Shown here in pieces: positions 3,499-32,298 of a DNA stretch of 64,000 bases. Each line of letters begins with the position of its first letter. Position 1 is the stretch's first letter. The position numbers and the translations under genes are program-made. The notes under the pieces were generated by a model, which worked only from the letters and a program-made list of their open reading frames with translations, ran no database searches and had not been told where the DNA came from. Source of the DNA: Dehalococcoidia bacterium (GTDB lineage Bacteria; Chloroflexota; Dehalococcoidia; UBA6926); assembly GCA_965207895.1 (NCBI GenBank), contig CBDBNN010000003.1, forward strand, positions 451,755 to 515,754, read 5' to 3'.

Positions 3499-4031
3499 AA
3501 ACTCGTTAGCGGCAGGATTTCAGCCGCTGCTTGACTGTCCTCGATGGTGAGGATTCCGACGTGGCCCGGCTCGCGGATGTTGCGTGGCAGGGCCGGACTG
3601 CCCGGGTTGACGATCAGTACTCCTGATTCCGTGCGCTCCACGTGAGCGACGTGCGTGTCGCCGCACACGATCACGTTCACCGGCCCGCCGAAATTGCGCT
3701 CCATCAGTGCCTCTGTCGTGATCCACGGCGTTTCTGCCGGCAGCGGGAACCCGTGAATAAGACCGACGCTGACTCCCTCTGCCTCCACGACGTGGGCGTG
3801 TTTGACGCGGGGATCATCGTCCGGGAACGGCGGTCGAAACCCGTCGCCGTCGCCATTGCCCCGCGCGCCAATGACAGGCGCGATAACTTCCAGCCAATCC
3901 AGAACGTCGATGATGTGCATATCGCCGCCATGCATGACCATGTCGACGCCGGCAAGCAGATCGAACACCTCGCCGGGCATTCGCTCCCCGGCCTCCGGCA
4001 CGTGTGTGTCTGAAATCAGGCCGATGCGCAT
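3489..4031 (-). CDS. YfcE/MJ0936-type metallophosphoesterase
   Basis: MRIGLISDTHVP ... GGDMHI ... IVCGDTHV metal-ligand motifs of the calcineurin-like phosphoesterase fold. Confidence 0.75.
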   Translation of the reverse strand: MRIGLISDTHVPEAGERMPGEVFDLLAGVDMVMHGGDMHIIDVLDWLEVIAPVIGARGNGDGDGFRPPFPDDDPRVKHAHVVEAEGVSVGLIHGFPLPAETPWITTEALMERNFGGPVNVIVCGDTHVAHVERTESGVLIVNPGSPALPRNIREPGHVGILTIEDSQAAAEILPLTSLAY

Positions 4032-4173
4032 CTATTTGTCCCGACCACCTTTCCCTCTCATTGAGACTACCAGCGCCAGTGTTGTTGACCATGCTGATGA
4101 ACCGATTCAAAATAGAAGAGAATGTCCAGCTAGCCCAACTGATCGTCTACCTTGCCACCAAGGAAATCAAGGC

Positions 4174-6534
4174 TTGCAACTCACCGACGAACAGAAGCAG
4201 ATTATTGCACATCCAGATGGATATCACGCCAAAGTCCTGTCGGTTGCTGGCTCTGGCAAGACAACTACGATGGCATACCGTATCAAACACCTGCTTGAAG
4301 AGAGGCAAGTTAGCCCAAAACAAATCCGGGTCTTGATGTTCAATCGAAATGCCAGAGAACAATTCGAGGCGAAACTTAGAGAGATAGGCATTCCAACTGG
4401 GCAAGGCCCACGGGTTGGAACTTTCCACAGCTATGCCCTCGAAGGAATTCGGGATGTATCCTACGTCCGCTGGTTCGACCAAGCACTACAGGAAGTGGCT
4501 CATCTAGAGCTTCGGAAAGCAGTCGACCTTGTGAGACGAAAGCTCCAACTGGACGAAGATGACTTGGACATAGGAGAAGCCGAACGAGCCATTTCTCTCT
4601 GGAAGAGTGAGTTGATTCCACCATCCCGGGCCGGATACCGTGGCAATCTTGGTGACGCATACGTGGCAATCTATAAAGACTTTGAGAGACGAAGAGGAGA
4701 TGTCAATGCCATCACATTCGACGATTTTGTCCCGCTCGCGATCAACAGACTTGAAAGTGATCAGTTGAGACGTCAGTCATTTGTGACCGGGGTGAATTAC
4801 ATCATTGTGGATGAATACCAAGACGTGAATTATGGTCAACAGAGACTGATCGAAATACTCGCGGGCAGCGGTGCCGATGTGATGGTTGTCGGCGACGATG
4901 ATCAGACCATTTACGAATGGCGTGGTGCTCGCAGTGACTACATTCTAGGCGAGTTCGATGCTGTATTCAGTAACAAACCGCACGGCCGGTATAAGCTGAC
5001 CAACTCCTTTCGTTTTGGGTACCTCATAGCTCAGTCCAGCTACAACGTCATTTCGCATAATGCGGAGCGTCTCGCCAAGGATGTACTTTCGAGCAAACCC
5101 GACGAGGATTCTAATATCGGAACATTTGTCGATTCACAGAATGGGGGCGGCGATTCAAATCGTGGTCTGGCAGAAGAGATAGTTACTTTGGTGAAGGCCA
5201 AGGGTGTTGCGCCTCCGGATATTCGTGTACTGGGGCGTACTTACGCGCAGCTCAGCGGCCTTCAGGCAGAACTCTTGCTCGGGAAAGTTCCATTCAGAGT
5301 CATTGGTCAGACATCCTTCCTACAGTCTAAGGAATGTATCTCCCTGCTCGACTATTTGCGGGTTGCGGCAGTGATTCATGAAGTACCAACTCAGATAACC
5401 CGGGACCAGTTCGTCAATATCGCTAACAAGCCACGCCGTTATTTGGCCCGACACGATCTTGAGAGAATGATAGATGAAGCAAGACTGACGAACATCTCCC
5501 TGTCAGAACACATAAATCTCGTGTTGGAAAAAGGCGAAGCATTCACCAATGCGCGTCAGCTCAGGAATTTGACAGAGATGAGAGATGTGCTGGGAGACCT
5601 TTACCAGATGCTGAATGGTCTGAAACCCGGTGCAAAGGTCGAATTGAGCGAACCCATAGGTACCTCATCGAAAATATCAGGGAATAAGACAACGTCTACT
5701 CAGGAGCCAAAAGTCGGCCCAATACTGACGTGGTTGGACGAGAGAGTTGGATTCCGGGAACACTACGAGGACTACTACGGAAGCGGTGAAGCTTCACTTG
5801 AACGTGTCGGCAATCTTAATGCTCTGATTAGTTATGCAGTGCGGCAAGAGGTCGGTTGGCGAGAATTCCTCAACCAGATGGAACAGGCTGATACAACCCT
5901 GGGCTTGCCTGACGACCACTGCATCCTGATGACCACCATTCATAGGGTCAAGGGTCTTGAGTTTGACTATGTGATCATTCCCAACTGTCAGGAAGGCCAC
6001 ATGCCTGTAATCCTTGGAAACGATGACCCGACCTACGATAAGAGCAATGAGAGACAAAAGCCCAAGCAAGCGGAATGGATTGAGAATGAGCGTCGATTGT
6101 TCTATGTCGGCGCTACACGCGCCAAAAAAACACTACTAATCGGCTCGCCGACGATTCCTTCAGGGGGCAAGAACAACTCAACTGGCACCTCATCCGATAC
6201 TGCAGTCAAGTCATCGCGATTTATTGAGGAGATGGAGCTGGAGCCAACGCGCGCAGTGGCCGAAGAACTGTTGAGGGCAGCTCGGGGGGAGTCTGACAAC
6301 AAATTAGCGGATGTTCTACAGGGACTCCCCGGTTATCACCTCATACTAAGCACGGCCAAGAGCTTTTATTCGCAATTCTTCTCTGCTAAGGACAAACAAC
6401 GTCTGGAAAGGGTCAAGATTGGGTCAGCCGAAAGGCCGTTCAGGTACAAGCAGGCTTACGATTCCCCCGAGAAGACTAAACCCAATGATGATGAAGGGAA
6501 CCGTCAGATTTGGGGCCACCTTGACCTCGACTGA
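4174..6534 (+). CDS. UvrD/Rep/PcrA-family SF1 DNA helicase
   Basis: Motif I AGSGKTT, motif II IIVDEYQD, motif III GDDDQTIYEWRGA, motif V TIHRVKGLEFD, motif VI YVGATRA. Start reassigned to the TTG at 4174 (MQLTDEQKQII), preceded by AAGGAAA. The ORF-track N-terminus is read-through over the convergent upstream gene. The gene sits on a visibly AT-richer segment. Confidence 0.85.
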   Translation: MQLTDEQKQIIAHPDGYHAKVLSVAGSGKTTTMAYRIKHLLEERQVSPKQIRVLMFNRNAREQFEAKLREIGIPTGQGPRVGTFHSYALEGIRDVSYVRWFDQALQEVAHLELRKAVDLVRRKLQLDEDDLDIGEAERAISLWKSELIPPSRAGYRGNLGDAYVAIYKDFERRRGDVNAITFDDFVPLAINRLESDQLRRQSFVTGVNYIIVDEYQDVNYGQQRLIEILAGSGADVMVVGDDDQTIYEWRGARSDYILGEFDAVFSNKPHGRYKLTNSFRFGYLIAQSSYNVISHNAERLAKDVLSSKPDEDSNIGTFVDSQNGGGDSNRGLAEEIVTLVKAKGVAPPDIRVLGRTYAQLSGLQAELLLGKVPFRVIGQTSFLQSKECISLLDYLRVAAVIHEVPTQITRDQFVNIANKPRRYLARHDLERMIDEARLTNISLSEHINLVLEKGEAFTNARQLRNLTEMRDVLGDLYQMLNGLKPGAKVELSEPIGTSSKISGNKTTSTQEPKVGPILTWLDERVGFREHYEDYYGSGEASLERVGNLNALISYAVRQEVGWREFLNQMEQADTTLGLPDDHCILMTTIHRVKGLEFDYVIIPNCQEGHMPVILGNDDPTYDKSNERQKPKQAEWIENERRLFYVGATRAKKTLLIGSPTIPSGGKNNSTGTSSDTAVKSSRFIEEMELEPTRAVAEELLRAARGESDNKLADVLQGLPGYHLILSTAKSFYSQFFSAKDKQRLERVKIGSAERPFRYKQAYDSPEKTKPNDDEGNRQIWGHLDLD

Positions 6535-6589: not shown

Positions 6590-7318
6590 CTACGGCAGAA
6601 TAATCCCACCCGGCGAGACGCCCGGTGTTTGCGAGTCCGCCGGGGGCAGGACACGGGCGACCCACTGTGAGAGGTCCCGCAGCTCCGTCGGAGTGATCTC
6701 ATGGCCTGCACCGGCGTATTCGTTGTAAATCAGGTCGCCGTAGCCCCACACCTCCAGTTGTGCGTGGGCAATCCGGCCCCGGTCGATCGGCACGACTTGG
6801 TCCTGGTCGCCGTGGCCGACGAAGATGGGCTGCGTCCGCTCCTCAGGCAGTTGGGCGGCAAGCTCTTCCATGTCGCTGATGGAGGCACTGAGCGCGCCTA
6901 TGCCTGCGAACACGTCGGGCCGGGGCAGGCCGTAGCGATAGGCCAGCCCGCCCCCCTGTGAGAAGCCGATAATCAGGATTTTGCCCGGCTCAAGCTTGTA
7001 CGGCTCGCGCATTTCCTCCATGAAGGCGTTAAAGGCCTCCTCCGTGCGCTTTGCCTCCTCCGGGTCATTGAAGCCGCCCGGCGTCGTCCAGCCGAAGCCG
7101 ATCTGCCCTCCGCCGATGTCCAGGGGAACCATGCCGTTCGGGCAGAGATATACGTAGCCCGTCTGGTGGATCGCGGGGGCGAGGCCCGCAAGGTCGTACA
7201 TGCTTGCGCCGAACCCATGCACAAGGATGACGACAGGATAGGAACGCGACTCGTCATAGTCCGTGGGGGTGATGCTGACGTAGTTGAGGGCGTTGCCCTC
7301 GTTTGCCGTTCCCTCCAA
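6590..7318 (-). CDS. alpha/beta hydrolase, phospholipase/carboxylesterase family
   Basis: Nucleophile elbow GFSQGG and downstream HG...D/H residues characteristic of esterase/lipase alpha/beta hydrolases. Confidence 0.7.
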   Translation of the reverse strand: MEGTANEGNALNYVSITPTDYDESRSYPVVILVHGFGASMYDLAGLAPAIHQTGYVYLCPNGMVPLDIGGGQIGFGWTTPGGFNDPEEAKRTEEAFNAFMEEMREPYKLEPGKILIIGFSQGGGLAYRYGLPRPDVFAGIGALSASISDMEELAAQLPEERTQPIFVGHGDQDQVVPIDRGRIAHAQLEVWGYGDLIYNEYAGAGHEITPTELRDLSQWVARVLPPADSQTPGVSPGGIILP

Positions 7319-7335
7319 CGGGCCGCTCCCTTCCT

Positions 7336-8334
7336 CTAGTCGCCGCGACGCGCAGCCCTGCGCGTGCGCGAGGCCAACTCACGGGCCAACAGCAGCGCTC
7401 CGCGCAGGCCGTTGTCGTCCCCGAGTTCCGTCACTTCAAATCGGACAGTGCGGTTCTGCAGCTTGAACGCCCGCTCCCTGGCAACGCTGATTCCGTGTTT
7501 CACGTATTCATCCTGGCCGCGGGCAAGTCCGCCACCAAGCACAATCAACTCCGGGTTGAATATGTTGACGATGTTGGCAAGGCCGACGCCCAGAGCGTAG
7601 CCAGCCTCATCAACTACGGTGCGAGCAAGGTCATCATCCTGAGCTGCAGCGTCGAAGACATCGCGCGCCGTTATGCTTTCGCTGCCCTCTGCTGCCACCT
7701 TTTCAGCGAGAATCGAATCGCCGCCAGCCTCGATCCGCATGCGGGCCATACGCGCGACGGCCGTTCCGGAGGCCATCGCTTCGAAGCAGCCGGACGACAG
7801 CCCACACGGGCACTGGATGCCAGTGTTCATGCTGATTGTCATGTGTCCGAACTCGCCCGCTGCCCCGGCGATGCCGCGCAGCAGCTTGCCGCCGGAGATG
7901 ATGCCGCCGCCGATGCCTGTGCTGATGGTCAGGTAGATCATCTCTGTCGTGCCGCGCCCCGCGCCCATCTGGTGGACGGCGTGCGCAGCGGCAGTGGCGT
8001 CATTTTCGATCTCGATGGGGATGTTCAGTCGCTCCTTGAGCGCGTCTGCCATCGCGAACTCGCGCACCATCGGCAGGTTCGGCGATTCAACGATGACACC
8101 GCTTGCCGTGTCCACCGTGCCCGCGCAGGCCACGACTCCGGCGACTATTTCGCCGTTCGTCCTGGCGATAAGGTCATGGGCGGCCTCAACGATGCCGTCG
8201 ATGAGCAGTTTGGGGTCAGAGCGGGCGGGAGATGAGAACACAGTGCGCCGCATGGCTCCGCGTGGCCTGCGAGCGATTGCGACCCGTGTTTGGGTTCCCC
8301 CAATATCAACACCGAGCAGGTACGGGTTGGCCAT
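7336..8334 (-). CDS. ROK family sugar kinase/regulator (glucokinase-like)
   Basis: N-terminal LGVDIGGTQTRVA ATP-binding motif and CPCGLSSGCFE zinc motif typical of ROK proteins. Confidence 0.8.
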   Translation of the reverse strand: MANPYLLGVDIGGTQTRVAIARRPRGAMRRTVFSSPARSDPKLLIDGIVEAAHDLIARTNGEIVAGVVACAGTVDTASGVIVESPNLPMVREFAMADALKERLNIPIEIENDATAAAHAVHQMGAGRGTTEMIYLTISTGIGGGIISGGKLLRGIAGAAGEFGHMTISMNTGIQCPCGLSSGCFEAMASGTAVARMARMRIEAGGDSILAEKVAAEGSESITARDVFDAAAQDDDLARTVVDEAGYALGVGLANIVNIFNPELIVLGGGLARGQDEYVKHGISVARERAFKLQNRTVRFEVTELGDDNGLRGALLLARELASRTRRAARRGD

Positions 8335-12916: not shown

Positions 12917-12946
12917 GCGAAGCGGGATATAGAGTGGCGTCGCGGT

Positions 12947-14563
12947 CAGTCGGAGTTTGGCGATGCGATACGCGGCGTTTGAGTCTCTTGTTTGGCAATC
13001 GACACTACATCCTCGGTCGGGATGGCCAAGGTCAGTTCGACGTTGTTGCTCCCGTCGATGGTGGCCCCGTCCAGGAGCAGCCCCAGCGCCTCCTTGCGCT
13101 CCTCGTCGGTCAGGTCGTCAAGCCTGCCGCCGAGCCGGTGTGCCCACTCGACGATGTGCTCGCCCAGCGCCCGCTTCTCCGCCTCGGCCATCTCCCTGGC
13201 TCGGTAGTCGTCCAGCTTCAGCCGGAGCGTCTCCAGCCGTTCAGTGATGAACTTGCGCTGGCGGTCGAGCTGCTTCTCGGTGATCTTCCCCGACACGTAG
13301 AGCCTTATGGCCCGGTCCTCCTCCAACTGCACCTTTTGCAACTCCCGCTCCGCAATGGCGATCTCCTCGACCAGCTCGCCGTTGTCCGCCCGCGAGTCCA
13401 TGGCCTCGATGCCGGCGACGATGACGCCGGGGTTCTCCAGCACCTTCTTGACCTCGCCCCAGACAAGCGCCTCAAGCCGCTCGGCCCTGATGTTGGGACG
13501 CTCCCGGCATTGCACGCCCTCATTCTCCATTCCGTAGCACCGGTAGTAGCGGCGGGGGGTGTCCAGGTCGTAGATGTAAGCCTTGCCCTTTCGCCTGGAG
13601 GTCTGGCGTCTCGTCCCACGGCAGCCCATGAGGTACCCGCACTCGGCGCACCTGACCAGGTGCTGCAAGAGATAGAAGAGCTTGGTGTTGCGGCCCGAAC
13701 GGGTCAGACGCTTCTTCTTGGTCTCCTGCGCCAGGTCCCATATCTCCTCGTCCACCACCGGGGGGAAGGGCACCTCGACCCACTCGTCCTCGGGTCGGTC
13801 GTACCGCCTCATCCCGTTCTCGGTGGCGACGTGGCGGCGCTTGCCGAAATACCAGGTGCCCTTGTATGCCTCGGTGCGTAGGATGCGGGTGACTATGGCG
13901 TCGTACCAGGGACCGACGGCCCTGGGCGTGGGGACGCCCTCGGCATTCAACTGCTTGGCGATGGCCGGAGCGCCCATGTCTTCGCGGACGTACATGCGGA
14001 AGACGCGGCGTACGACCTCGGCCTCCTTCTCCACGATCTCCGGCCTGCGGTTCTCGCTGAGTTCGTAGCCGTAGGGGACGTTGTTGACAGGGATGCGGCC
14101 CTGCTTGGCCGAGCCCCGCTTGCCCATCGAGGCCCTCTCCCGGAAGTTGTCCAGCTCGATCTTGCCGATGGCCGCCATCAGGCCGAAGGTCTTCATGTCG
14201 ATGGCGTCAAGGACAGCTTCCAGTTCTATCTGGTACGCCTCGACGACCTCCATGAGAGCGGCTGCGGGGTACATGCCCCGGCTGAGCCGGTCGGACTTCC
14301 AGCAGACGATGGTGTCGAAACGTCCCTGGCGGGCGTCGGCCAGCATCCGCTGGAACTCCGGGCGGTTCTTGGACCATCCTCTGCCCACCTCCTGGTAGCG
14401 CGCGGTAATGGTCAGTCCCCTGCGCTCGCAGTGGGCCTCCATGTCGCTGATCTGCTCGGAGATGGAGGTCTTGTCCTCCGTGTCCTGGCTCTTGTCCGAG
14501 ACGCGGGCGTAGATGGCCGCCCGTTTCGTTCCCGTCTGCCTATCGGTGGTACTCGTCGCCATG
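12947..14563 (-). CDS. large serine recombinase (phage-type serine integrase)
   Basis: N-terminal resolvase domain with catalytic AAIYARVSDKSQ, a recombinase domain, a Cys-rich zinc-ribbon region (CAECGYL...C...C) and a coiled-coil C-terminus. Start set to ATG MATSTTDRQ with AGGAGG 6 nt upstream. The longer track ORF is read-through. Confidence 0.9.
12991..13010. repeat. left copy of terminal imperfect inverted repeat (candidate att half-site)
   Basis: 16/20 match to the reverse complement of 31288-31307. Confidence 0.4.
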
Positions 14564-14590
14564 TCTGCCTCCTGTCGTGTCCCTGAAATA

Positions 14591-14622
14591 AAGAAGACCC
14601 GCCTCCTGTCGGGAGCGGGTCT
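14591..14622 (-). promoter_or_regulatory. stem-loop followed by a T-tract immediately upstream of the integrase RBS (terminator/attenuator-like)
   Basis: Minus strand reads gacccgctcccgacaggaggcgggtc then cttctttatttc, then the RBS and ATG of the integrase. Confidence 0.35.
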
Positions 14623-14900
14623 GCGAGTAGTACAATCACTTCGCATCACCTGTTCCCGCAGGTGGCGCCACGGCCCGGGGTGTTTGCAGCACCGCCGGGT
14701 CAACTTCTATCTGCCCTCCATTTTACCGCGCTGGGCTGGAGGGAGTCAAAACGCGTCACCGGTCGGTGCTGCCTCCATTTGAATTGCTGACGCCAATCCC
14801 AGATTACCGACTAGACGCCGGTGAACCATGTCAACGGTCTTGGTGGCAGGTATTTCAGCCGAGCCTAGGTGCCGCCAATGGGTTCGGCGGGAACCGTCAT

Positions 14901-15188
14901 TTACCAGATCCGATACCAGCCGGGGCTGACCACGGACATGATCCCCATGACGAGGATTGCAGCCATGGTAAGGACCCCAACGGCCCAGGCCGCCCCCAGG
15001 TCCCCGCTCAATCGCCACGTGGCCAGGAATGTCAAAGCGCCGCCAAGGACAGCCCAGGGGAGGACGCCGCTCTCAATGATCCATATGGCGATCAGAATGG
15101 CAGAGACTAGACCCGCTCCGACGAGCAGATATGCAGCCGCCAAGTTATCGGTCCCAGCGCTGCTTCGGGCTGAACGCCGTCGCCCCAT
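14901..15188 (-). CDS. small two-TM membrane protein
   Basis: Strong RBS AAGGGAGG 7 nt upstream of the ATG. Two hydrophobic helices (LAAAYLLVGAGLVSAILIAIWII, VGVLTMAAILVMGIMSVV). Confidence 0.45.
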   Translation of the reverse strand: MGRRRSARSSAGTDNLAAAYLLVGAGLVSAILIAIWIIESGVLPWAVLGGALTFLATWRLSGDLGAAWAVGVLTMAAILVMGIMSVVSPGWYRIW

Positions 15189-15383
15189 GCCCGTGCCTCC
15201 CTTTTTGAGATAGAATATCAGAGTTTTCTATCGGCACCAAGACCTTCTTGGTCCGAGTTTGGCACCCCTGGTCCACGATAGGGACTTCAAGAACTCCTTC
15301 AGGTCAGTGGAGGAAGCAGCACCTCCGCTGACAGAGGCGGAAAGCCCGTAGACCCTACCCTCCGCTCCTTACGGTGCGTTCGT

Positions 15384-16589
15384 TCACTCCTCCCGGTCGT
15401 TTCCCGAGAGTGCGCCTCGCAGCTCTATCGCCTGCCGCGTCCGGTCGAGTTCCGCGGCTAGGATCGTCTCCTCTGGCAGGGTGATGCGGTACTCCCCGGC
15501 CATGACGTTGTTGGGCAGGCCGTCGAGGGCGTACCGCGCCAACGCCTCGTCCTTCTCGGAGCAGAGGATGAGTCCCACGGGCGGGTTCTCGCCCTCTCGA
15601 ACCCAGTGCTCCCGCGCGTAGTTCAGGTAGAGGTGCATCTGTCCGGCGTCGGCGTGGGTGAACGCCCCGATCTTCAGGTCGATGACCACGAGACACCGCA
15701 GACCACGGTGGTAGAAGAGCAGGTCCACCCTGTACCACCTGTTGCCGATGCGCAGGCGCCTCTGCCTGCCCATGAAGCAGAAGTCGTCCCCCAGCTCCAT
15801 GAGAAAGGTCTCCAGGTGGCGGATGAGCGCGTCTTCAAGATCGCTCTCGGAGTACTCGTCCTTGAGGCCGAGGAACTCCAGGACGAAGGGGTCCTTGATC
15901 TGCTCCTGGGGCAGCACGGCGTCTTCGGCATTGGGCTTCCGTCCCGACGTGAGCATGGCAGCCTTGTTCTTGGACAGGGCGGTGCGCTCGTAGAACTGGG
16001 AGGCGATCTGTCGGTCTAGCTGACGGACCGACCACCCTCCCCTCAGCGCCTCCGTCTCGTAGAACTCGCGGGCCTGCTCGTCCCTGACCGACAGCAGCCT
16101 CACGTAGGCCGACCAGGGCAACGGGAAGGCTGACAGCAGGTCTTCGAAGCCTACGCCGTCCGATGCGGTCATGAATTCTCCCGACGCCGTCGAGAGAATC
16201 CTCTGTCGATGGGATGAAGCCGATTTTCCCGACACTGTCGGGAGAATCCGGTCAGACGGGAACGAGAGGTAGAAGAGACGCATCTTGTAGATGCCCTGGA
16301 GGGAGAAGCCCCGACCGAACCTTCCGGTCAGGTCCTCAGCCAGTCTCTCGATGAGCGCCGCCCCGTACTCGGCCCGCTCCTCTCCCGACTGCTCGAACTC
16401 GACGATGCGACGTCCTATCAGCCAGTACGCGGCGGTCATGGCGGCGTTCACCGACCGAGCGGCAGAGTCTCTGGCCGCGTCGATGATTCTCGACACGTCT
16501 CCGAAGACAGCCTCGTACGGGGCGTCGTGACTGAGGGTTGAACGCCTCAGTGATGGCTGATTGCGGTTGGGGGACATCTCGGATGGCAT
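15384..16589 (-). CDS. DUF1016 (YhcG/RhuM-like) PDDEXK-fold nuclease family protein
   Basis: C-terminal block RVDLLFYHRGLRCLVVIDLKIGAFTHADAGQMHLYLNY matches the restriction-endonuclease-like core of DUF1016 proteins (D...D/E-x-K arrangement: DLLFY ... IDLK). Confidence 0.75.
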   Translation of the reverse strand: MPSEMSPNRNQPSLRRSTLSHDAPYEAVFGDVSRIIDAARDSAARSVNAAMTAAYWLIGRRIVEFEQSGEERAEYGAALIERLAEDLTGRFGRGFSLQGIYKMRLFYLSFPSDRILPTVSGKSASSHRQRILSTASGEFMTASDGVGFEDLLSAFPLPWSAYVRLLSVRDEQAREFYETEALRGGWSVRQLDRQIASQFYERTALSKNKAAMLTSGRKPNAEDAVLPQEQIKDPFVLEFLGLKDEYSESDLEDALIRHLETFLMELGDDFCFMGRQRRLRIGNRWYRVDLLFYHRGLRCLVVIDLKIGAFTHADAGQMHLYLNYAREHWVREGENPPVGLILCSEKDEALARYALDGLPNNVMAGEYRITLPEETILAAELDRTRQAIELRGALSGNDREE

Positions 16590-16813
16590 CAGGCTTCCTC
16601 CTCCAAGTGGTTGTCCACTTGGACGTCCGGGAGCGCGTCCTTCTCGGACTCCGCTTGCCCGTCGCCGGCCGAGGGCCTGAGCAGCAGGGTGAAGAGACGG
16701 AGCAGCCGGTCCTCGGCGTCGGGTGCGGGCCTGGAGATGACCCTCACCTCCCCAAACTCCGAGAAGTCCTCTTCGGGCATCCGTCGCACTTTCGGTCTCC
16801 TCTTGTCGTTCAT
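16589..16813 (-). CDS. small ORF (73 aa, MNDKRRPKVRRMPEEDF...) translationally coupled to the DUF1016 nuclease
   Basis: Its TGA stop overlaps the ATG of the nuclease (TGATG). A diverged paralogous copy at about 18310-18095 lacks a stop, so that copy is decayed. Substitutions between the copies are enriched at third codon positions in this frame. Confidence 0.3.
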   Translation of the reverse strand: MNDKRRPKVRRMPEEDFSEFGEVRVISRPAPDAEDRLLRLFTLLLRPSAGDGQAESEKDALPDVQVDNHLEEEA

Positions 16814-17060
16814 CGTTCTCTTCGCCGGGCTCTCGTGAGCCCGCACCGGGCTGTCAATGTCGGCGGATCGCAGCCCTCGCCAGAGAGTGTGAACAACTCG
16901 AACGCCGAAAAAGACCTCACGCGTGGTGGCGCCACGGAAGGTCGCCAACGAACAAGCCTCTTCGCGCAGTATTGGGGGTGTACAGGAAATGGAGTTTGGT
17001 GACGAAGTGGCCTGAGTCGTGATTTCGTAGCTGAATCAGGGGCAAATCGCCCTCTACAGG
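16596..17060. repeat. copy A of a diverged ~450-bp duplication
   Basis: Aligns by eye to 18096-18560 at roughly 70-80% identity. Both copies end in gtga(t/g)ttcgtagctgaatcagg ... ctctacagg. Confidence 0.6.
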
Positions 17061-18095
17061 AGGTGGTCGGCGAGCAATCTGTTGAAAGGGTGGAGTTCGG
17101 TCGGCAATGACAAAAGCAGGCTTGAGGTGGGGGTGCATGACGCGGCCCAAATCGGCGGCCCGATGACAAAAGCGGCCAAAAGATGCGCTTGAGGTGGGGG
17201 TGCGTTACACCGGGCGAGACATCGCAAGAAACGCGGACCTGGTGGAAGGCAAAGCTGAAACGAGTTTGCGGGGAAGCAGGAAACTGCCATAGAGACGACC
17301 CAACACGGCCTCTAGGACAGCAAAGACCTGGAGCACATGTACCCCATGAGGCCCGGTCAGCTGGCACCACGCGGCGCTTTACGACACGCAGAGAGCGCGG
17401 GGCAGAAGCGAGGTTGCGTCCAGGGTGTGGCGGGCGCTCACGCAGAGGTGGTTGTGGCGGTAGTTGTGGAGCAATACGTTGCCCAAGGTCGCGCTGGAGC
17501 AATATCCGGGGTGGGGGCACGCATGGGGTCTTCTTGGTCTCGCAGATCGGTGATAATGACCTCACTGTTTGGCTTTCTCCAAGGTTTCCGACCACAGAAA
17601 CCTGGGTGCGTGATCCCTGTTGCACGGGCTTCGCCCAAGAGGGAATGCTGGCGATGCGGAGTTTGACGTTGGTCCTCCGCAACCAGCGCGGGCCGGATCG
17701 ACGGAGTTGACGCAGGGGCCTCCGTTTTCGGTCCAGTCCAGCGGGTTGGAGTTTGACGTTGGTCCTCCACTCGAAGGACATCTGCCTGACGTTCGGCGTT
17801 GATCGCTCCCTCCGTTGGGCACCGGTCTGACGGCTGGGGTTGATCGCCTCGCAGTCTGACCAGGGGGACGACGTGTTAGCGCATCGTCCCCGGCAAACTG
17901 GCCAAAGTGCGCCTGTCGCTTTGGCCAGTTCAGCACGTCTGCGGGATGGCTGGAACGCAGCCGCACCGCAGCTTCCGCACGCAGTTGATGGGGTGCGGTC
18001 CTGGCTGAGGGTTGACCGCCTCGCCGGAGACAGATGACGTTCGGATGCCAATGCTAAGTTGGAATTGACCCACCCCGATAGCGGGCGCATTGGGC

Positions 18096-18560
18096 TTCTG
18101 CCTCCAGGTGGTTGTCCACGAGTCGGTGATCCGAGGGCGGGTCCTTCTGGGACTTCCGCCTGCCTCTCCTCGTCCGTGGGCCTGAGCGGCAGGATGAAGA
18201 GGCGGCGCAGCCGGCCCTCGGCGTCGGGGGCAAGCCTGGAGATGACCCTGACCACGCCGCATTCGGAGAATCCCTCCTCGTGTATCCGTTGTCCGCTCCG
18301 TCTGCTCCTGTCGTTCATCACTCTCTTCACCGGGCTCGCGTGAGCCCCAAAAGGGCTATCAATGTCGGTCTGAATGCCATTGAGTCTGGGGAGCCGAGGG
18401 GCGAAAAAACACGGTCCGTGAGGGGGGCGCTCGCGGGATGCTCCCTCACGAGGTCTCCATCCCAAATGGCCGGATGTGATGTACTACCCGTGTACAAGGA
18501 AATGCGCCGGTTGCATAAATGCAAGTCGGTGGTGAGTTCGTAGCTGAATCAGGTTGGAGT
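18096..18560. repeat. copy B of the diverged ~450-bp duplication
   Basis: See copy A. Confidence 0.6.
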
Positions 18561-18775
18561 GGAGGGGTGTGGGGCCGTTGTTGCGAGCACTTCGAGATAA
18601 GGGCGGGTTCACCCGATTTGGGCGGAAGTTGCAGAAATGCAAGTCGGAAAAGCGGAACAGCGGAGCGCATCGCTGCTAAATCGGAGCGAGCGATTTGGGG
18701 AACGAGGCCTAAACCGGGCCGTGATGGCCTCTACAGGACGCCCCTATCGGACATGAACATGAGGAGGTTTGACGC

Positions 18776-19705
18776 ATGAACGAGGCAGAGTTGAACGGCA
18801 CGCGGGTTGAGGAGACCCAGGATGGCGGGAACCAGGACACCGACGTGTTGGACGATGAAACCCTGACGAGCGAAGTCGGGGACGGTGACGACGCGGACAA
18901 GGAGCGGATGCGGCGGCACAGGTTGAGGGGGTTCCTGCGGGAGCTGGTGCGGGAGGAGGGCCGGATGGAGGCTGCGGAACTACTGGGCGTTGCCTACCGC
19001 ACGCTGGTCAAGGCCGAGGAGACCGGCGAGATCACGGGACGCATGGGCGACGCCATCGAACGGCTGTCGAGCGCGGGCGACAGCCCGGAGGTGAAGCGGC
19101 TCAGGGAGTCGGTCGGAATGGTCGAGGAACGCATGGCCGCGTTGGAATCCGGCATGGGGGCGCTGGGGAAGGAGCTCCGGGACGGACTGGACAAGTTGCG
19201 CATTGCGGCGGCCGGCAAGTCCGATGCCGAGGGCGGCGGCGAGGAAGGGACCCAAGCGGAGGACGCGGGTGAGAAGAAGGCGGGCCGGTCGGAGACCGGG
19301 GCCGCACCTCCGGTGGCGGGCCTGCGCCCCAAAAAGCCCTTCAGGGAGCGGCGCAAGGAGCCCGAGGTGGTCACGGTGAAGCCTGCCGACGACGACCGGG
19401 AGGTCTACGGCAAAGCCTGGCCGCTCATCGAGGAGTGGCGCAGCCTGCGGACAGGTCACCCCAATGAAGGCAAGAGCCTGTCGTGGCTCACGACGCATGA
19501 GCGGCTGCTCGTGCTGGAACTGGCGATGCTGGAGGAGCACGGGCTGACCCTGCCGCCGGAGAAGCAGGCGCTCAGGGGGTTCGGGCGCAGTGGCCAGACC
19601 ACCTGGCGGTGGACGGCGCTGGCGGACACGAGGAAGTCCCTGGCAAGGCGGGAACTGCTGCGCTGGGTGCGCCGGGTCCTCACCGTGGGACTGTGGCGGG
19701 AGTAG
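18776..19705 (+). CDS. hypothetical DNA-binding protein with putative HTH and coiled-coil/charged regions
   Basis: Strong RBS GAGGAGG before the ATG. Segment AAELLGVAYRTLVKAEETGEI resembles an HTH. Flanked on both sides by related repeats (gctgctaaa ... cggagcgag(c/t)gatt). Confidence 0.55.
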   Translation: MNEAELNGTRVEETQDGGNQDTDVLDDETLTSEVGDGDDADKERMRRHRLRGFLRELVREEGRMEAAELLGVAYRTLVKAEETGEITGRMGDAIERLSSAGDSPEVKRLRESVGMVEERMAALESGMGALGKELRDGLDKLRIAAAGKSDAEGGGEEGTQAEDAGEKKAGRSETGAAPPVAGLRPKKPFRERRKEPEVVTVKPADDDREVYGKAWPLIEEWRSLRTGHPNEGKSLSWLTTHERLLVLELAMLEEHGLTLPPEKQALRGFGRSGQTTWRWTALADTRKSLARRELLRWVRRVLTVGLWRE

Positions 19706-19931
19706 GCCCCGGAGCCTGCCTTCGGGGCCGGTTTTCGGCGGCTGCTAAAGCGCAGCGACATGGGCGCTAACTCGGAGCGAGTGATTCACGCTGGGTTGAC
19801 CTGAAACCCCTTCCGAAGCCTTCCATTGCCTGTCCGACCAGGCGATAATTGACGCAGTTTCTGGCTTTTCCAGCGTTTCGTGCCGAGAAACCTGGAGGGT
19901 TCCCGTCCCCCGAATCCGGGACCGGCTGCAT

Positions 19932-20080
19932 AGGATCGAGCCTCGCTCTCCGAACAGCCGCCCAGGGGTCAGACCGGAAGGATTGAGCCTCGCTCTCCCG
20001 ATGGTCTCCCCGGAGGGACAAACGCCTTCCCGCTGCGTGAGCCGGTCGAGGGGTCGAGCCGTTGCTCCTCCGATGCCGTC
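19932..20080. repeat. three imperfect ~30-bp direct repeats (iteron-like) upstream of the 4xHTH gene
   Basis: ggatcgagcctcgctctccgaacagccgcc / ggattgagcctcgctctcccgatggtctcc / gggtcgagccgttgctcctccgatgccgtc at about 50-70 bp spacing. Confidence 0.5.
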
Positions 20081-20749
20081 TCGGAAGTCGGGACACCACC
20101 GTAGCGAGTACGGTGCAGACTCTCGCCGAGGTGCGCCCAGCGTCCCGGCCATTCCTCATGCCTGCGGCGCAAACGTCACGCGGTTGGGTCGCAGCTTCAA
20201 CGCACGCCGTCCTGCTATGACTCCGCATGGCTGCGTCGCTCTCACGGCACCGGTCTCGGACCGATCTGCAGGCCGGACGCATTTCCTCTCACAGCAGCTC
20301 CCCGGTCCGCATCCCCGTGATATGACCCTGGACGAGCTGCGTTTTTCTCACCCCACTTCGTCCCCGCGTCCGGCATCCGACCGTGGGCGAAGTGCGTCTT
20401 GCGTCAAACGAACCCATCACACACACAACCCGCGCCCCGGATGCCGCGCGGGTCAGCAACATCAATATCAAGGAGGTGCACATGCACGTTGAGTAGTTAG
20501 TAGGCGAGACCAAGGGCGCCGGAGTCGGCATTGACGGCTTCACGCCCCCGCCTCTCGCACACAAGGCCCCCATAACAGTTGGCGAGCAAAGGGCCGCTTC
20601 TTCCTCCGCGCGAGGAAGGGTGGCCCTTCTCTTTGCCAGCAACGAACCCACGGAGACGGTCCCGGCTGCCGGGACATCAATTCGAGCGGGACTGTCTCCG
20701 CCCCACGGGGTGGCGGCCGTCCCGCTTCTTCATTGAAAGGAGAAGCGAC

Positions 20750-21907
20750 ATGACGACGGCAACCACACCAACGACCAATCGGCAGAACACGACGGAGACA
20801 ACGACGGATGCGGCAACGCCCGTTGAGGCCATGGGCAAGCCTGAGAGCGAACTCAGGGCGGTGGCCAGGAAGAAGGGCCTCACCATGAGGGAGCTTGCGG
20901 CCCTGATGGGCGTGAGCGCCAGCCACCTCTCCCAGGTCGGCACGGGCAAGAAGCCCTGGACCCCCAACCTGCGGGAGAAGGCGATGGCTGTGCTGGGCGA
21001 GGTCCCAGGACAGGGCTTCGTCTACCGACAGCGCGGCGAGGTCAATTCGGAGAGCAGCTACATCCGGGAGCAGGCACGGACGATGGGCTACACCATGCGG
21101 GAACTCTCCGACCGGTCGGGGGTGAGCTACTCCTACCTCACCCAGGTGGCCCGTGGCCGCCGCAACATGGGCGTCAAGGTGCAGGCCAGCATCGAATCGG
21201 CTCTTGGGGTGGCGGCCAGGGTCGCTCCGGCCAAGCTCGCCAACCGTCAGGGCGAGGTGGTCGAAGGGACGGACAGCAGCTTCATCCGGGAGACCGCCCG
21301 CGCCCTCGGCATCACCATGCGGGAGCTGGCCGAGAAGGTGGGCGTGTCCGCCGGGTACCTGTCCCAGGTGTCACGCGGGCACAGGAGCATGGGCGTGAAG
21401 CTTCAGGCTCGGGTCGAGGCTGTGCTTGGAGGGCGTGCGAAGGTCGCTTCCGCCCAGTGCCCCGACATCGACCGCCAGTTCATCTGGGAGCAGATGGACG
21501 CGCTAAACGTCAGCCAGAACGAGGTCGCGAGGCGGGCGGGCATCAGCTCCGGTCACCTCTCCCAGATCATGAACGGCCAGCGCAGCCCGTCCGCCGTGGT
21601 CATCAGAAAGCTGCACGGGGCGCTGTTCCGGCGCAGCCAAGACCCGCAGCGGGTGATGCCCGTTGCCATGAAGGTCCTGGGCTGGAAGAAGGGTGAGCGC
21701 AGCGGGATGGTGGTGCACGGCGCCCGTGGCCGGGACGGCACTGCCAGGGGCGGCGCGGTGCGCGTCGGCGGCCGGGTGCCCTGGGGCGCGAAGGTGGAGT
21801 ACGCCTTCCGCGCCGGGTACGACGGCAGGGGCAAGGTGTCGGTGGACCACGTGGTGGCGCCGAGCTGCTCCGCCCTGTTGATGCGGCCGGAGCCTACGAC
21901 CGCTTAA
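20750..21907 (+). CDS. protein with four tandem XRE-type helix-turn-helix domains
   Basis: Four repeats of the pattern (L/Y/I)TMRELAxxxGVSxxYLSQVxRGxR(S/N)M. RBS AAAGGAGAAG before the ATG at 20750. Gly/Arg-rich C-terminus. Confidence 0.75.
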   Translation: MTTATTPTTNRQNTTETTTDAATPVEAMGKPESELRAVARKKGLTMRELAALMGVSASHLSQVGTGKKPWTPNLREKAMAVLGEVPGQGFVYRQRGEVNSESSYIREQARTMGYTMRELSDRSGVSYSYLTQVARGRRNMGVKVQASIESALGVAARVAPAKLANRQGEVVEGTDSSFIRETARALGITMRELAEKVGVSAGYLSQVSRGHRSMGVKLQARVEAVLGGRAKVASAQCPDIDRQFIWEQMDALNVSQNEVARRAGISSGHLSQIMNGQRSPSAVVIRKLHGALFRRSQDPQRVMPVAMKVLGWKKGERSGMVVHGARGRDGTARGGAVRVGGRVPWGAKVEYAFRAGYDGRGKVSVDHVVAPSCSALLMRPEPTTA

Positions 21908-26000: not shown

Positions 26001-26131
26001 TCCGCCGCCAGCGCCTCGCGCGGCACGTAGGTCCAACCCAGCTTCTCCAGCAAGCGCCTCGCTGGGTCCTCGGCGTGGTTGAATTCGTTGAGCTTGGAGG
26101 GTGTGGTCATAGGACTCCTAGCTACCCTCAT
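23000..26131 (-). CDS. hsdR: Type I restriction enzyme R subunit
   Basis: N-terminal nuclease motif (PDIVLFVNGIPLVVMEAK), SF2 helicase motifs (WHTQGSGKSLTM; VIVMVDEAHRTQ) and a long C-terminal domain. The start may be the internal MTTPSKL (about 26110). Confidence 0.95.
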   Translation of the reverse strand: MRVARSPMTTPSKLNEFNHAEDPARRLLEKLGWTYVPREALAAERGDEREVLLKGRLRAALLRLNEWMTEAQAGRVIFDLEHIDATGMGRNQAVHEYLTYGKPLTVDGPQGRDSRIVRFFDFDHPEGGLNEYVVTTQFRVRRANERGGAEDDERMVIPDIVLFVNGIPLVVMEAKSPSLLDVWKTNAVRQLRRYQEAGPEWRGSGAPELFHYNLLCVAHCGAAAAYASIGAPENAYFEWKWLGSHSEDDVRQRYGVEPQGQAQLIVGLLPPATLLDILRDYVVYEPERGRVVKKLPRYQQYRTVRAGLERLLTGLKPEERGGVVWHTQGSGKSLTMLWLATRLRREPRLGNPTIVVVTDRTQLDRQITGTFERCGFPAPERAATSRDLRRLLTTGAGRTIMTTIQKFEEALTTPEGELDVLNASENVIVMVDEAHRTQYGILGGRLSKALPNAALIGFTGTPIEKGFKRNTIGRFGSLIDTYTIPQSVADGATVPIFYEARLPELAIEGPETLDKLYDAMFGDEPPAVQAQIRRRYANKETVAEAERRIEMIALDIAEHFKAKIRPNGFKAQVVAPSRVAALRYASRLKDFGLSAYPIITTAPNDGPEFKAARELDQGQVESAFVDPEGEPEVLVVVDMLLTGFDAPVEQVLYLDRALREHGLLQAVARVNRRFSHRKDGAETEKTHGLVVDYHGVSRDLEDVLSTFDWSDVQGTMQEMDEDPASVVEAAAVQAESHFKGRDLSDTWACVSVFAPDASTEGNLKAHVFERFNADYRGFSRLMDRFLPDPRALDYTDRLARLTEIRAYVRAQFLREDADIDWTEIGAKVKKLVDERISAQVREMMRPVSILDRDFDQKIAALPHDEARASIMEHAIRSQIHESLGDNPAFYERLSEQLARIIDDLRNRVIDAAEACRRYAEVRGRMRSEADIAAEFGLSPTSFAIYALLERRPENGEVPPRHIAEEQGVYHVQIDEEARSVALRIESVVAQRSRVVDWHVNEDVRRLMRRDIKRELRPKGDYTEDQLEELASRIVELASRRSGQ

Positions 26132-27086
26132 CGAAAGTAGTTGAACTCCAATGACTGGCTACCCTAAGCACGTAATCGGCACAGATTATGGCATTCAGGG
26201 CTTGCCTGCTTGTATTGTATGCAGCAAAACCGTGACTAGCCGCATGGCGATTCGGTGTCGGACTGTGCCTGATTTCTTCCAGGTTCTCGCTCTCCACCCG
26301 AGCGTAGAGTTCGTGCATGATGTATTTGATGACGACCCACTCGTGGCGACCATCCCAGATCAAATTTCTAAACGGTGTATGACCTACTCGCTCCTGGATT
26401 TCTCCGTACTGCCCGCTCTTCGTTCCTTCGATACCGAGCAAGTCCTCACGAATCACTTTCTCGATTAGAGGCAATACTCCGTAACAGGCTGAGCGAAAAT
26501 AACCTAGCCTATAGACCTCCAACGCTTCACGGACCGCGCTCTTGTCTTCGTCATCTACTGAGTAATCCGATAAGCGCGTGGATATGTCTTCAACTATCTC
26601 GCTTGTACATTCACTGTAATACCGGTCTACGAGGTCGCTGAACGTGCTCTCGTCGTAACTTGAGTCGTCCAAGAACTGTGCAAACGGAACAGTTCTATAT
26701 GGGAGCCATCCGGTGGTTGTGCTTGCCTCTTCCATTCGTTGTTCAAATGCAAATGGATTGGGAAGCTTCAGCACGTCCAACGAGGGGAGCCAGGTGTTTG
26801 GCTGCAAGGTAATCTGGGTTATCTCTGATATGGCCCCCAATTGTTGTGTCAACAGGTGAGCCATAAGGGAAGTCATGCGACTCTGGTCAAGGATCGACTG
26901 TAGACCGCTCGTCATGTGTGCCAACGAGCTTTGCCATCTACCCAATTGCCCTTCCATGATACTGGCCTGAATCTTGAAGGAGTCATCCCACAGCTTGCTG
27001 AATGACGCTGTTATCTGATTCATATCGCTCATCACGTGACGCAGGTCCTCATGGGAGGTACCGCGAACATCATCTTCAGTGCTCAT
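26118..27086 (-). CDS. hypothetical protein on an AT-richer segment inside the R-M operon; possible HEPN-like (R-x4-H) protein
   Basis: Clean 322-codon ORF with 14-nt and 4-nt overlaps with neighbours. C-terminal NRHAASHG fits the Rx4-6H HEPN signature. Composition is clearly AT-richer than hsdS/hsdR. Confidence 0.6.
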   Translation of the reverse strand: MSTEDDVRGTSHEDLRHVMSDMNQITASFSKLWDDSFKIQASIMEGQLGRWQSSLAHMTSGLQSILDQSRMTSLMAHLLTQQLGAISEITQITLQPNTWLPSLDVLKLPNPFAFEQRMEEASTTTGWLPYRTVPFAQFLDDSSYDESTFSDLVDRYYSECTSEIVEDISTRLSDYSVDDEDKSAVREALEVYRLGYFRSACYGVLPLIEKVIREDLLGIEGTKSGQYGEIQERVGHTPFRNLIWDGRHEWVVIKYIMHELYARVESENLEEIRHSPTPNRHAASHGFAAYNTSRQALNAIICADYVLRVASHWSSTTFDEGS

Positions 27087-31890: not shown

Positions 31891-32012
31891 GATTATCTCC
31901 CCACGCTTGTCACATCTATTTTAACTGGTCCGCGCGTGCCCACCTAGTCTACGTGTCTGTAGGATCGGTATCGGCGAGGAATGTAGGTAACGTCACGGCA
32001 ATTGTGGAGCAG

Positions 32013-32291
32013 TTACTTGAGCTTTATGTGCTGAATCAATTCTAGGAATTTTGTGGCATCCTTTTCCCGCTCACTAAGGGTAGTCGTATGGATATAGAGA
32101 TCCGGCGAACGCTCAAGAAACCTCTCCATGAGCCGTCGCTTCTCGCTTTCGACTCGATTCAACTGAGAGGGTTCATATACTAGCAACAGGTCGATGTCGT
32201 TTGGGGAGTCGACGCGAAGGCCTGAACCAAACAAATATGCTTCACTGAAACAGTCGCTGATCAGCGAAGCGATAAAAGAGTAGTCTTGCAC
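32013..32291 (-). CDS. minimal nucleotidyltransferase (MNT, Pol-beta superfamily)
   Basis: hG[GS] and DxD signature LFGSGLRVDSPNDIDLLLVY. AT-rich segment. Confidence 0.75.
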   Translation of the reverse strand: MQDYSFIASLISDCFSEAYLFGSGLRVDSPNDIDLLLVYEPSQLNRVESEKRRLMERFLERSPDLYIHTTTLSEREKDATKFLELIQHIKLK

Positions 32292-32298
32292 CGTTCAT

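Follow-up and report, generated by a model that had tools for sequence, protein, structure and literature searches.

The 64-kb window analyzed here (64,000 nt) is a chromosome-like sequence of a Dehalococcoidia bacterium of the phylum Chloroflexota, and the closest relatives of its local genes come from metagenome-assembled genomes (MAGs) named Dehalococcoidia bacterium and Chloroflexota bacterium RHO1_bin_9. It contains an island that spans ~12.9-36.1 kb, ends at a tRNA-Arg gene, and codes for a large serine recombinase, a YhcG-type PD-(D/E)XK nuclease, a 309-residue protein which we term p309 (18776-19705, + strand), a protein with four Xre-like helix-turn-helix (HTH) domains, YgjP, a type I restriction-modification system, and HNH, ThiF and DUF433 proteins. 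Between the genes for the YhcG-type nuclease and p309 lies a repeat-dense stretch, positions 16814-18775, which is our subject. Comparative sequence analysis leads us to read this stretch as a mosaic, which would have arisen from the tandem juxtaposition of two related control cassettes belonging to integrative and conjugative elements (ICEs) of the Dehalococcoidia. We consider it probable that the stretch is the scar of two such cassettes, of which the first, cassette A, has decayed, and that the leader of the second, cassette B, is live, with palindromes that are read by p309.

The order of features in a cassette is a small leftward open reading frame (ORF), a leader of ~400 nt, the rightward gene for p309, a predicted HTH protein of 309 aa, and a structured non-coding element. 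Our comparison set comprised 82 loci around p309 homologues (L001-L082), and both the leader and the downstream element were found in about 80 of them. L001, a complete relative, has its p309 homologue flanked on one side by a leftward type IV secretion system (T4SS) operon, coding for TrbL, a pilin, VirB4 and the coupling protein, and on the other by rightward genes for a primase, Rad52, SSB and RadC; p309 is hence a marker of the divergent control region of an ICE. No relaxase gene was present in the flanks fetched for this locus. A single genome may carry up to four p309 copies. The island in the window, as scanned, has no T4SS genes, and hence holds only remnants of ICEs.

The leader of cassette B (18365-18775, + strand) is an intact and conserved p309 regulatory region. 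Compared by blastn with the 400 nt that precede the p309 homologues, it shows 65-82% identity in most of the 80 loci, with a sharp left boundary, and 18365-18786 matches the leader profile with E=1.9e-98 (nhmmer). Proceeding rightward, it contains a GC-rich hairpin formed by an inverted repeat of 13-15 bp (18417-18450), GTGTACA (18490-18496), the predicted operator O1 (GTTGCATAAATGCAAG, 18510-18525), the motif TTCGTAGCTGAATCAGG (18537-18553) followed by GCGAGCACTTCGAG, the predicted operator O2 (GTTGCAGAAATGCAAG, 18628-18643), the box GCTAAATCGGAGCGAGCGATT (18675-18695), the direct repeats CCTCTACAGGAC and CCCCTATCGGAC (18728-18752), and a ribosome-binding site, GAGGAGG (18761-18767). O1 and O2 are identical 16-bp palindromes (GTTGCAnAAATGCAAG), with arms of 5-6 bp flanking a 4-nt spacer. 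Their centres are 118 bp apart, and they lie ~260 bp and ~140 bp, respectively, upstream of the p309 start codon, positions that are conserved across the loci. At least five operator types are seen, namely TTGCA-N4-TGCAA, TTCCC-N4-GGGAA, TTGAC-N4-GTCAA, TTCCG-AAAA-CGGAA and TTGGA..TCCAA, and across the 80 loci O1 and O2 are always of one type within a given leader. Two other blocks of this leader are also widely conserved. The box GCTAAATCGGAGCGAGCGATT recurs at 19757-19777, where the downstream element starts; across the loci both copies are conserved, and the box could be a shared promoter or binding site. The tandem direct repeats at 18728-18752 (consensus CCCCTACAGGACA), directly upstream of the p309 ribosome-binding site, are nearly invariant across the loci.

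Homologues of p309 number at least 823, all of them unnamed and devoid of Pfam domains, and p309 itself belongs to no Pfam, NCBIfam or PHROG family; among the fetched loci the proteins are 53-98% identical, mostly 55-70%. The AlphaFold model shows an acidic tail, an HTH at residues ~37-100, a long helix (104-145) and, beyond a disordered linker, a helical domain at the C-terminus, and is confident only in the HTH region, where the predicted local distance difference test score is about 85, and in parts of the C-terminal domain. Residues 73-82, AYRTLVKAEE, make up the predicted recognition helix. We aligned the p309 proteins of the loci with typed operators and ranked all columns by the mutual information that they share with operator class. 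The five that rank highest, residues 75, 79, 78, 63 and 73, all fall in or beside the predicted recognition helix, the region of which is otherwise nearly invariant; by our own calculation, the chance of the top five of 309 columns falling inside a 17-residue window is ~3e-7. Residue 75 is R in 23/23 loci of the TTGCA type and K in 43/43 loci of the TTCCC type. More generally, the helix sequence AYRTLVK accompanies TTGCA, N(Y/H)KTL(T/A/V)R accompanies TTCCC, AYRTVVR accompanies TTGAC, NYKTLHQ accompanies TTCCG and DYRTLVK accompanies TTGGA. The C-terminal domain does not follow operator class, as domains that are 94-97% identical occur in proteins of different classes (L034/L056 at 97%, L013/L058 and L028/L007). 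Thus, the association does not simply follow clade.

Given that O1 and O2 change together, and change along with residues 63, 73, 75, 78 and 79, we infer that p309 binds these palindromes as its operators. Under this proposal p309 would occupy each palindrome, probably as a dimer, through a Cro/Xre-like HTH, and would control both its own promoter and a divergent leftward promoter. The latter would drive the T4SS operon in complete relatives, and in the window would formerly have driven the module of the small ORF, YhcG and recombinase genes. The core of the half-site (TT-NNN) and the helix residues 73, 75, 77, 78 and 79 would then constitute matched specificity types, comparable to the immunity groups of phages.

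That a second, decayed cassette precedes cassette B is indicated by a diverged direct duplication with a period of ~1505 bp, 16524-17040 versus 17998-18553, which is about 79% identical and brackets the region; over most of its length (16814-18320), the stretch represents a degenerate paralogue of the intact cassette next to it on the right. Just to the left of the stretch, the small ORF of cassette A (16589-16813, - strand; 74 aa, MNDKRRPKV..., from the ORF list and its translation) is intact. It has no match in Pfam, NCBIfam or PHROG, and tblastn finds its homologues beside YhcG in L012, L022, L031, L033, L049, L053 and L055. The entire module of large serine recombinase, YhcG-type nuclease and 74-aa ORF (window 12946-16813) recurs beside the p309 leader in L012, L022, L031, L033 and L053, a T4SS operon taking its place on that side of the leader in other genomes.

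Leader A (16814-17349, + strand) is a degenerate paralogue of the p309 leader, in which 16970-17093 matches positions 121-245 of a leader profile made from 25 other loci (nhmmer, E=7e-7). It has kept GTGTACA, a decayed O1-like site GTTTGGTGACGAAGTGG (about 16994-17012), TTCGTAGCTGAATCAGG (17024-17040), an O2-like ATGACAAAAGC(A/G)G that is duplicated locally along with CTTGAGGTGGGGGTGC (17107-17136 and 17162-17203), GGCCTCTAGGACAGC (17308-17322), and CATGAGG, the remnant of a ribosome-binding site (17345-17351). The operator-like sites have lost their dyad symmetry. As a motif in this leader, ATGACAAAAGCAGG, resembles a decayed site of the different, TTGAC, type, cassette A would have come from a heterologous element. 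The leader is followed by the remnant of a second p309 gene, consisting of 37 C-terminal codons, GPVSWHHAALYDTQRARGRSEVASRVWRALTQRWLWR, and a TAG stop (17350-17463, + strand). In a six-frame translation it matches positions 272-307 of the hidden Markov model of the p309 family (E=4.4e-4), with the match stopping at the stop codon; by blastn it matches the 3' ends of the p309 genes of L025, L023, L019 and L059, and its nucleotide identity to that end of the p309 gene in cassette B is 61%. The deletion in this p309 copy extends from the ribosome-binding-site remnant to about codon 271.

The remainder of cassette A is element A (17464-17995, + strand), a paralogue, much diverged and cut short at its 3' end, of the conserved element downstream of p309 (element B, discussed below). 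It gives two collinear nhmmer matches to a profile of that element from 74 loci, 17497-17605 (profile 91-208, E=1e-6) and 17874-17982 (profile 353-463, E=3.4e-13). Within it lie a GATAAT box (17552-17557), three tandem hairpins, H1 (17648-17686), H2 (17695-17734) and H3 (17736-17779), the first and third of which contain an exact 21-mer, and a further hairpin, CTGCGGgatGGCTGgaacgCAGCCgcaCCGCAG, at about 17939-17971, which is indicated by fold prediction and covariation. Its 3' neighbor is the remnant of a second YhcG gene, the start codon and ~30 N-terminal codons (...ARRSTLSQD..., 17998-18090, - strand), which marks the junction of the two cassettes. We propose that a deletion joined the element of cassette A, at ~profile position 463, to codon ~30 of the YhcG gene of cassette B. 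The small ORF of cassette B (18054-18318, - strand) is a pseudogene, 62% identical to copy A over residues 1-55; a 1-nt insertion (alignment column 181) shifts its frame, so that the C-terminal DNHLEAEA motif is in a different frame and the pseudogene is spread over ORFs 16810-18465 and 18054-18233. Homology to an intact cassette in combination with disabling lesions identifies the region as a decayed segmental duplicate with pseudogenes, and we take cassette A to be mostly debris. The initial annotation of this DNA had rightly seen no credible protein gene in it. None is intact, the 551-aa minus-strand ORF (16810-18465) is a read-through across pseudogene debris, and Pfam searches with the ORFs inside the region returned no match. 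Its further view, that the stretch does not represent decayed coding sequence, has to be given up for the 37-codon remnant of p309, the ~30 N-terminal codons of YhcG and the frameshifted small ORF, where part of the region is recognizably derived from genes, an outcome that the annotation had itself named as refuting its reading.

Element B (19689-20353, + strand) is the canonical form of the structured non-coding element, and 17464-17995 is its decayed paralogue. Its 5' end holds the p309 terminator (19706-19745) and a GCTAACTCGGAGCGAGTGATT box, its near-invariant core (19841-20016) has two hairpins, GGATYGAGCCTCGCTCTCC, and its 3' part comprises a hairpin that covaries (about 20162-20200), with a terminator-like module after it (about 20292-20352). 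In the alignment of the two copies, H1 and H3 take the place of the two canonical hairpins of the core. Across ~80 loci the element is 75-93% identical overall and 84-96% identical in its core (blastn), values above those of p309 itself, and the copy in the window matches the profile with E=1.4e-149 (nhmmer). In complete ICEs it precedes the genes for primase, Rad52 and SSB. Its counterparts in L005-L082 are situated at about 6800-7600, and the terminator-like module (GCAGCTC...GAGCTGCGTCTTTTTC) stands in tandem, one to three times, in many loci (L045 7517-7662, L043 7515-7587, L022 7631-7741). Single-nucleotide indels within the core indicate that it is non-coding and argue against a small gene there. 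The core, being near-invariant, shows little covariation, and its predicted + strand stems hold invariant U.G pairs. The hairpin at ~20162-20200, in contrast to the core, has at least five different inner stems, all of which pair, including GGCTG/CAGCC in the version of cassette A (about 17939-17971). Its positions pair in 93% of cases, as against 84.6% in shuffles and 25-43% in slid controls, it has 32 double-change cells versus 14.2, and its score was reached by 0/500 shuffles. Many G.U pairs of this hairpin would be A.C mismatches on the opposite strand. The folding energy of the whole element is not better than that of shuffles on either strand (z = -0.8 and +1.0), and the claims of structure therefore rest on covariation. 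In Rfam (15) searches the whole window gave only two tRNAs, and, at a permissive E<=5-10, both 16400-19000 and 19650-20650 gave sub-threshold chance matches only.

The repeats for which the stretch was first singled out are largely accounted for by these features. None of 300 dinucleotide-preserving shuffles of 16950-18775 reached the observed values, which are 24 repeated 12-mers (0.27 +/- 0.72 in shuffles), 13 repeated 15-mers (0.02) and a longest exact repeat of 21 nt (10.6 +/- 1.1). Repeated 12-mers were absent from four coding stretches of equal length in the window, and the GC content is 61-62% throughout the region. The repeats that had been reported are thus real and in excess of shuffled sequence, with their positions in need of correction by 2-13 nt. 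They comprise the 21-mer GGAGTTTGACGTTGGTCCTCC (17658-17678 and 17748-17768, placed earlier at 17652 and 17745), gacaaaagc(a/g)g (17109 and 17165) with ttgaggtgggggtgc (17122 and 17189), aaatgcaagtcgg (18517 and 18635, placed earlier at 18504 and 18641), GGGTTGAnCGCCTC (16535, 17837 and 18009), and TGACGTT, of whose seven copies in the window four lie here (17664, 17754, 17787 and 18035). The copies of aaatgcaagtcgg are the 3' halves of the palindromes O1 and O2. The pair gacaaaagc(a/g)g ... ttgaggtgggggtgc is a local duplication within leader A, at the place where O2 would sit, and the copies of the 21-mer form the tops of hairpins H1 and H3. Two of the three copies of GGGTTGAnCGCCTC belong to the duplicated segment coding for the YhcG N-terminus, and we accordingly dropped it as a family of binding sites. 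Hence, the initial suggestion of protein-binding sites of the operator kind is borne out for the aaatgcaagtcgg family, where the palindrome halves co-vary with the p309 recognition helix in ~80 loci; a structured nucleic acid is plausible for the 21-mer family, whose hairpins are the counterparts of those in the conserved, strand-specific structured element. With up to 3 mismatches allowed, the 21-mer occurs in the window only at its two sites (0 expected), and an exact scan of the JGI metagenomes yielded 0 matches. With 2 copies in 64 kb and 0 in 80 other loci, it does not qualify as a CRISPR array, or as a family of repetitive extragenic palindromes or miniature inverted-repeat transposable elements. 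Likewise, we set aside the template/variable pair of a diversity-generating retroelement as the source of a 214-nt repeat, there being no reverse transcriptase among the ORFs scanned.

Repeats of this density also bring to mind an origin- or partition-like array, with iterons or a centromere, as had been suggested at the outset, or an origin of transfer (oriT) with the relaxase-binding repeats of a mobilisable island. Besides the sheer number of short repeats and the strand bias of TGAC(G/A), such a role would suit the leader in that it lies, in complete relatives, between T4SS genes and genes like those of leading regions, which is where an oriT is expected, and in that it has the GC-rich inverted repeat of 13-15 bp. 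Against it, the repeats do not form a regular tandem array, TRF finding two trivial arrays only, and each family has 2-3 copies at irregular spacing. They resolve instead into a segmental duplication with scattered duplicates, hairpins and the two operators, and those of copy A are absent from all other loci. Pfam scans covering the larger ORFs of the island found no rep, parA/parB or relaxase genes, and the stretch is not known to match any nic-site consensus. We therefore abandon the iterons and the centromere-like site, and hold any array or oriT of this sort to be highly improbable.

Certain observations weigh against our account of a decayed cassette A and a live leader B read by p309, and some of them lend themselves to other explanations. 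With respect to p309, the structural evidence for a Cro/Xre-like protein is suggestive only: a Foldseek search of the PDB with the model places N15 and lambda Cro, Aca11 and C.Esp1396I nearest in fold, yet none of these matches reaches significance (E>=2), the Pfam HTH models give no match, and the match to an excisionase HTH is weak (E=0.068). A scan of 16500-20700 with the sigma-70 consensus found no promoter-like site; the terminator-like sites of the same segment number two, which is not in excess of shuffled sequence. As only ~500 bp or less separate the operators from the HTH codons, part of their association may be due to linkage; nevertheless, residues 1-60, whose codons are physically between the operators and those of the HTH, are less class-associated, which speaks against linkage alone. 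Further, O1 and O2 might also form RNA hairpins that are more stable than shuffles (z = -3.8 and -3.0). The palindromes and the other blocks of leader B could accordingly act as RNA rather than as DNA operators, in the form of a long structured 5' untranslated region, an attenuator or a riboregulator of p309, or, in a variant of this idea, as identical hairpins that are bound by an RNA-binding factor or that switch between local and long-range pairing. RNAalifold predicts hairpins at both palindromes, with GC-to-CG swaps in 11/26 sequences, and the GC-rich hairpin at 18417-18450 shows compensatory changes and an invariant U.G pair. The leader, at about 400 nt, is long, and RNA switches are known in the long leaders of conjugation operons; the leader of the pLS20 conjugation operon measures 456 nt (PMC13401043). 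However, independent RNA hairpins have no need of a shared sequence, and yet O1 and O2 invariably share theirs. Moreover, their type tracks the DNA-reading helix residues of the adjacent protein, which RNA structure alone would not predict, and arms of 5-6 bp are short. On balance we think an RNA function of the palindromes improbable, and prefer to see them as operators of p309.

With respect to cassette A, the match of the p309 remnant to its family, at E=4.4e-4, is modest, and several features are more than pure debris would lead one to expect. The copies of the 21-mer are identical at 21/21 positions within flanks that are only 42-53% identical, and H1, H2 and H3 reproduce the canonical architecture of an outer stem, a 5' bulge, an inner stem and a small loop with different stem sequences. 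TGAC(G/A) is found 10 times on the + strand of 16870-18090 versus 3.0 +/- 1.6 expected, and its reverse complement 0 times versus 2.6 expected; leader B and element B have no such strand bias, and part of the excess stems from local duplications. These features might mean that 17464-17995 is a functional, diverged paralogue of element B, with the GGAGTTTGACGTTGGTCCTCC hairpins acting on the + strand as RNA, be it a cis-acting leader, an antiterminator or a small RNA, or as single-stranded DNA, in priming or as a single-strand origin. Also in keeping with this possibility, the hairpin at 17939-17971 pairs by means of a new inner stem that fits the covariation of its counterparts, 17642-17790 folds better than shuffles (z = -2.6), and the GATAAT box at 17552-17557 has been kept. 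Conversely, the minus strand of 17642-17790 folds about equally well relative to its own shuffles (z = -2.7). The hairpin part of copy A cannot be aligned by blastn or nhmmer to a core that is otherwise so strongly conserved in ~80 loci, as would be the outcome of a loss of constraint. The adjoining p309 gene has been lost to a deletion, and the element itself breaks off at about position 463 of the 679 in the profile. The JGI metagenomes gave no match to the 21-mer, and cassette A is confined to the window and two near-identical MAGs, so that selection on it is not measurable. We therefore regard continued function of element A as unlikely, and its decay together with the rest of cassette A as the better account.

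The two near-identical MAGs, L003 and L004, are independent assemblies that show the same arrangement at 99.4% identity, which is therefore not an assembly artefact. Between 15300 and 20300, the window is ~99.5% identical to these loci over 15820-19450, with both flanks being 8-20% diverged and a 38-nt indel near 15327; this mosaic divergence suggests a recent recombination tract that covers exactly the control cassettes. Two tandem leaders are also found in L022, L031, L053 and L055, which have the recombinase/YhcG/small-ORF module, and in L010, L030 and L036. They differ in operator type wherever both can be typed, with TTCCC in the first leader and TTGCA in the second in L022 and L053, and TTCCC followed by TTGAC in L010 and L036. 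This fits a side-by-side accretion of heterologous elements or their remnants rather than a designed duplicate, and we dropped the notion of co-regulated duplicate leaders on the same grounds. Tandem accretion of ICEs, of integrative and mobilizable elements, and of their decayed derivatives, the cis-mobilizable elements, at one integration site is well documented (PMC7563491). As in those cases, two related elements or remnants stand side by side next to the gene of a site-specific recombinase, with internal deletions and pseudogenes. Unlike in them, the junction here consists in a deletion joining the YhcG gene to a non-coding element, and is not a recombination site, and the history of accretion and subsequent deletion would have to be read back from the remnants.

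The proposed role of p309 recalls Cro/CI-type and controller HTH regulators, such as lambda and N15 Cro and C.Esp1396I, and the immunity regulators of ICEs, ImmR and SetR. The Cro, CI and controller-protein systems likewise have a small HTH protein and short dyad sites in a divergent promoter region beside its own gene, two operators per region, and specificity or immunity types in which operator and helix change together, all of which would apply to p309 as predicted. The differences are that p309 is a protein of 309 aa whose C-terminal domain is conserved and which also has a long helix and an acidic tail, that its fold match is not significant, and that its operators are 105-118 bp apart, whereas those of Cro/CI-type systems are adjacent. 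A parallel in function is offered by Reg576, the ribbon-helix-helix repressor of plasmid p576, which controls establishment genes through dual TTATCCC heptamers (PMC6294495). In both cases a regulator of a conjugative element would act on itself and on the first-entering genes by way of repeated short operators in several promoter regions (PMC6294495); p309, unlike Reg576, is predicted to have an HTH and palindromic sites, and there is no sequence relationship between them.

As for element B, we tentatively raise the possibility, which we consider rather doubtful in its entirety, that it represents a novel kind of functional nucleic acid in conjugative elements, one that acts in a strand-specific manner and of which the hairpin array at 17648-17779 would be a diverged, still functional paralogue with altered specificity. 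Such an element may be a single-strand origin or a priming signal that is read by the primase of the ICE itself or, alternatively, a cis-acting RNA by which RNA polymerase is enabled to pass the terminator-like modules and enter the establishment genes. Known elements with comparable roles are sso, the single-strand origin of ICEBs1 (PMC4595007), Frpo, the single-stranded DNA promoter of leading regions (PMC9849209), and conAn2, a cis-acting antiterminator RNA of a conjugation operon (PMC8191782). Element B and its paralogue resemble them in being non-coding, strand-specific, hairpin-rich and several hundred nt long, and in lying between a regulator and genes of the primase/SSB type; further, the element is more conserved than the neighbouring genes and is followed by terminator-like hairpins. 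It has no sequence or Rfam similarity to sso, Frpo or conAn2. In particular, a hairpin of the Frpo type on the template strand would not predict wobble pairs on the coding (+) strand of the element, and these pairs argue against a promoter hairpin of that kind.

A few observations pertain to the wider window. The four-tandem-Xre-HTH protein (window 20579-21907) is kept at about 58-62% identity ~2 kb downstream of p309 in many loci; its homologues are at ~8-10.5 kb in about 30 loci and near 11.8 kb in L048, and the window is without the usual intervening genes. BLAST searches found no match in the PLSDB plasmids for the region, element B or p309, and none for the region in the INPHARED phages. 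Inside the coding sequence of the YhcG gene, at 16175-16249, a palindromic unit of 26-27 nt, ATTCTCCCGACGCCGTCGAGAGAATCC, occurs twice, 48 nt apart. Three segments have a GC content of 48-52%, as against ~60-65% elsewhere: 4001-6000, in an ORF for a UvrD-like helicase (3802-6534), 26001-27000, near an unassigned ORF of 322 aa that separates the R and S genes of the type I system, and 32001-33000, near the HNH gene. They are likely to be foreign cargo.

The stretch itself is ordinary in kind, being tandem debris of mobile elements plus a promoter-operator region. The apparent code linking p309 helix and operator and the ultra-conserved candidate element, on the other hand, have no description that we could find in the searchable literature, nor is there one in the literature searched for a multi-copy ICE family with a fixed control cassette in uncultured Dehalococcoidia, such as that to which they belong and which has the MAG RHO1_bin_9 among its carriers. 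With its five or more types, the predicted specificity code of p309 offers a testable model of immunity-like exclusion between co-resident ICEs in unculturable organisms, and the paired operator and helix types may serve as a means of typing these ICEs from sequence. Element B, more conserved than any neighbouring gene, heads the block of primase, SSB and Rad52 genes and is thus a candidate for a function in the conversion of single-stranded to double-stranded DNA or in early expression during conjugation, steps which in the phylum Chloroflexota are as yet unstudied ground.

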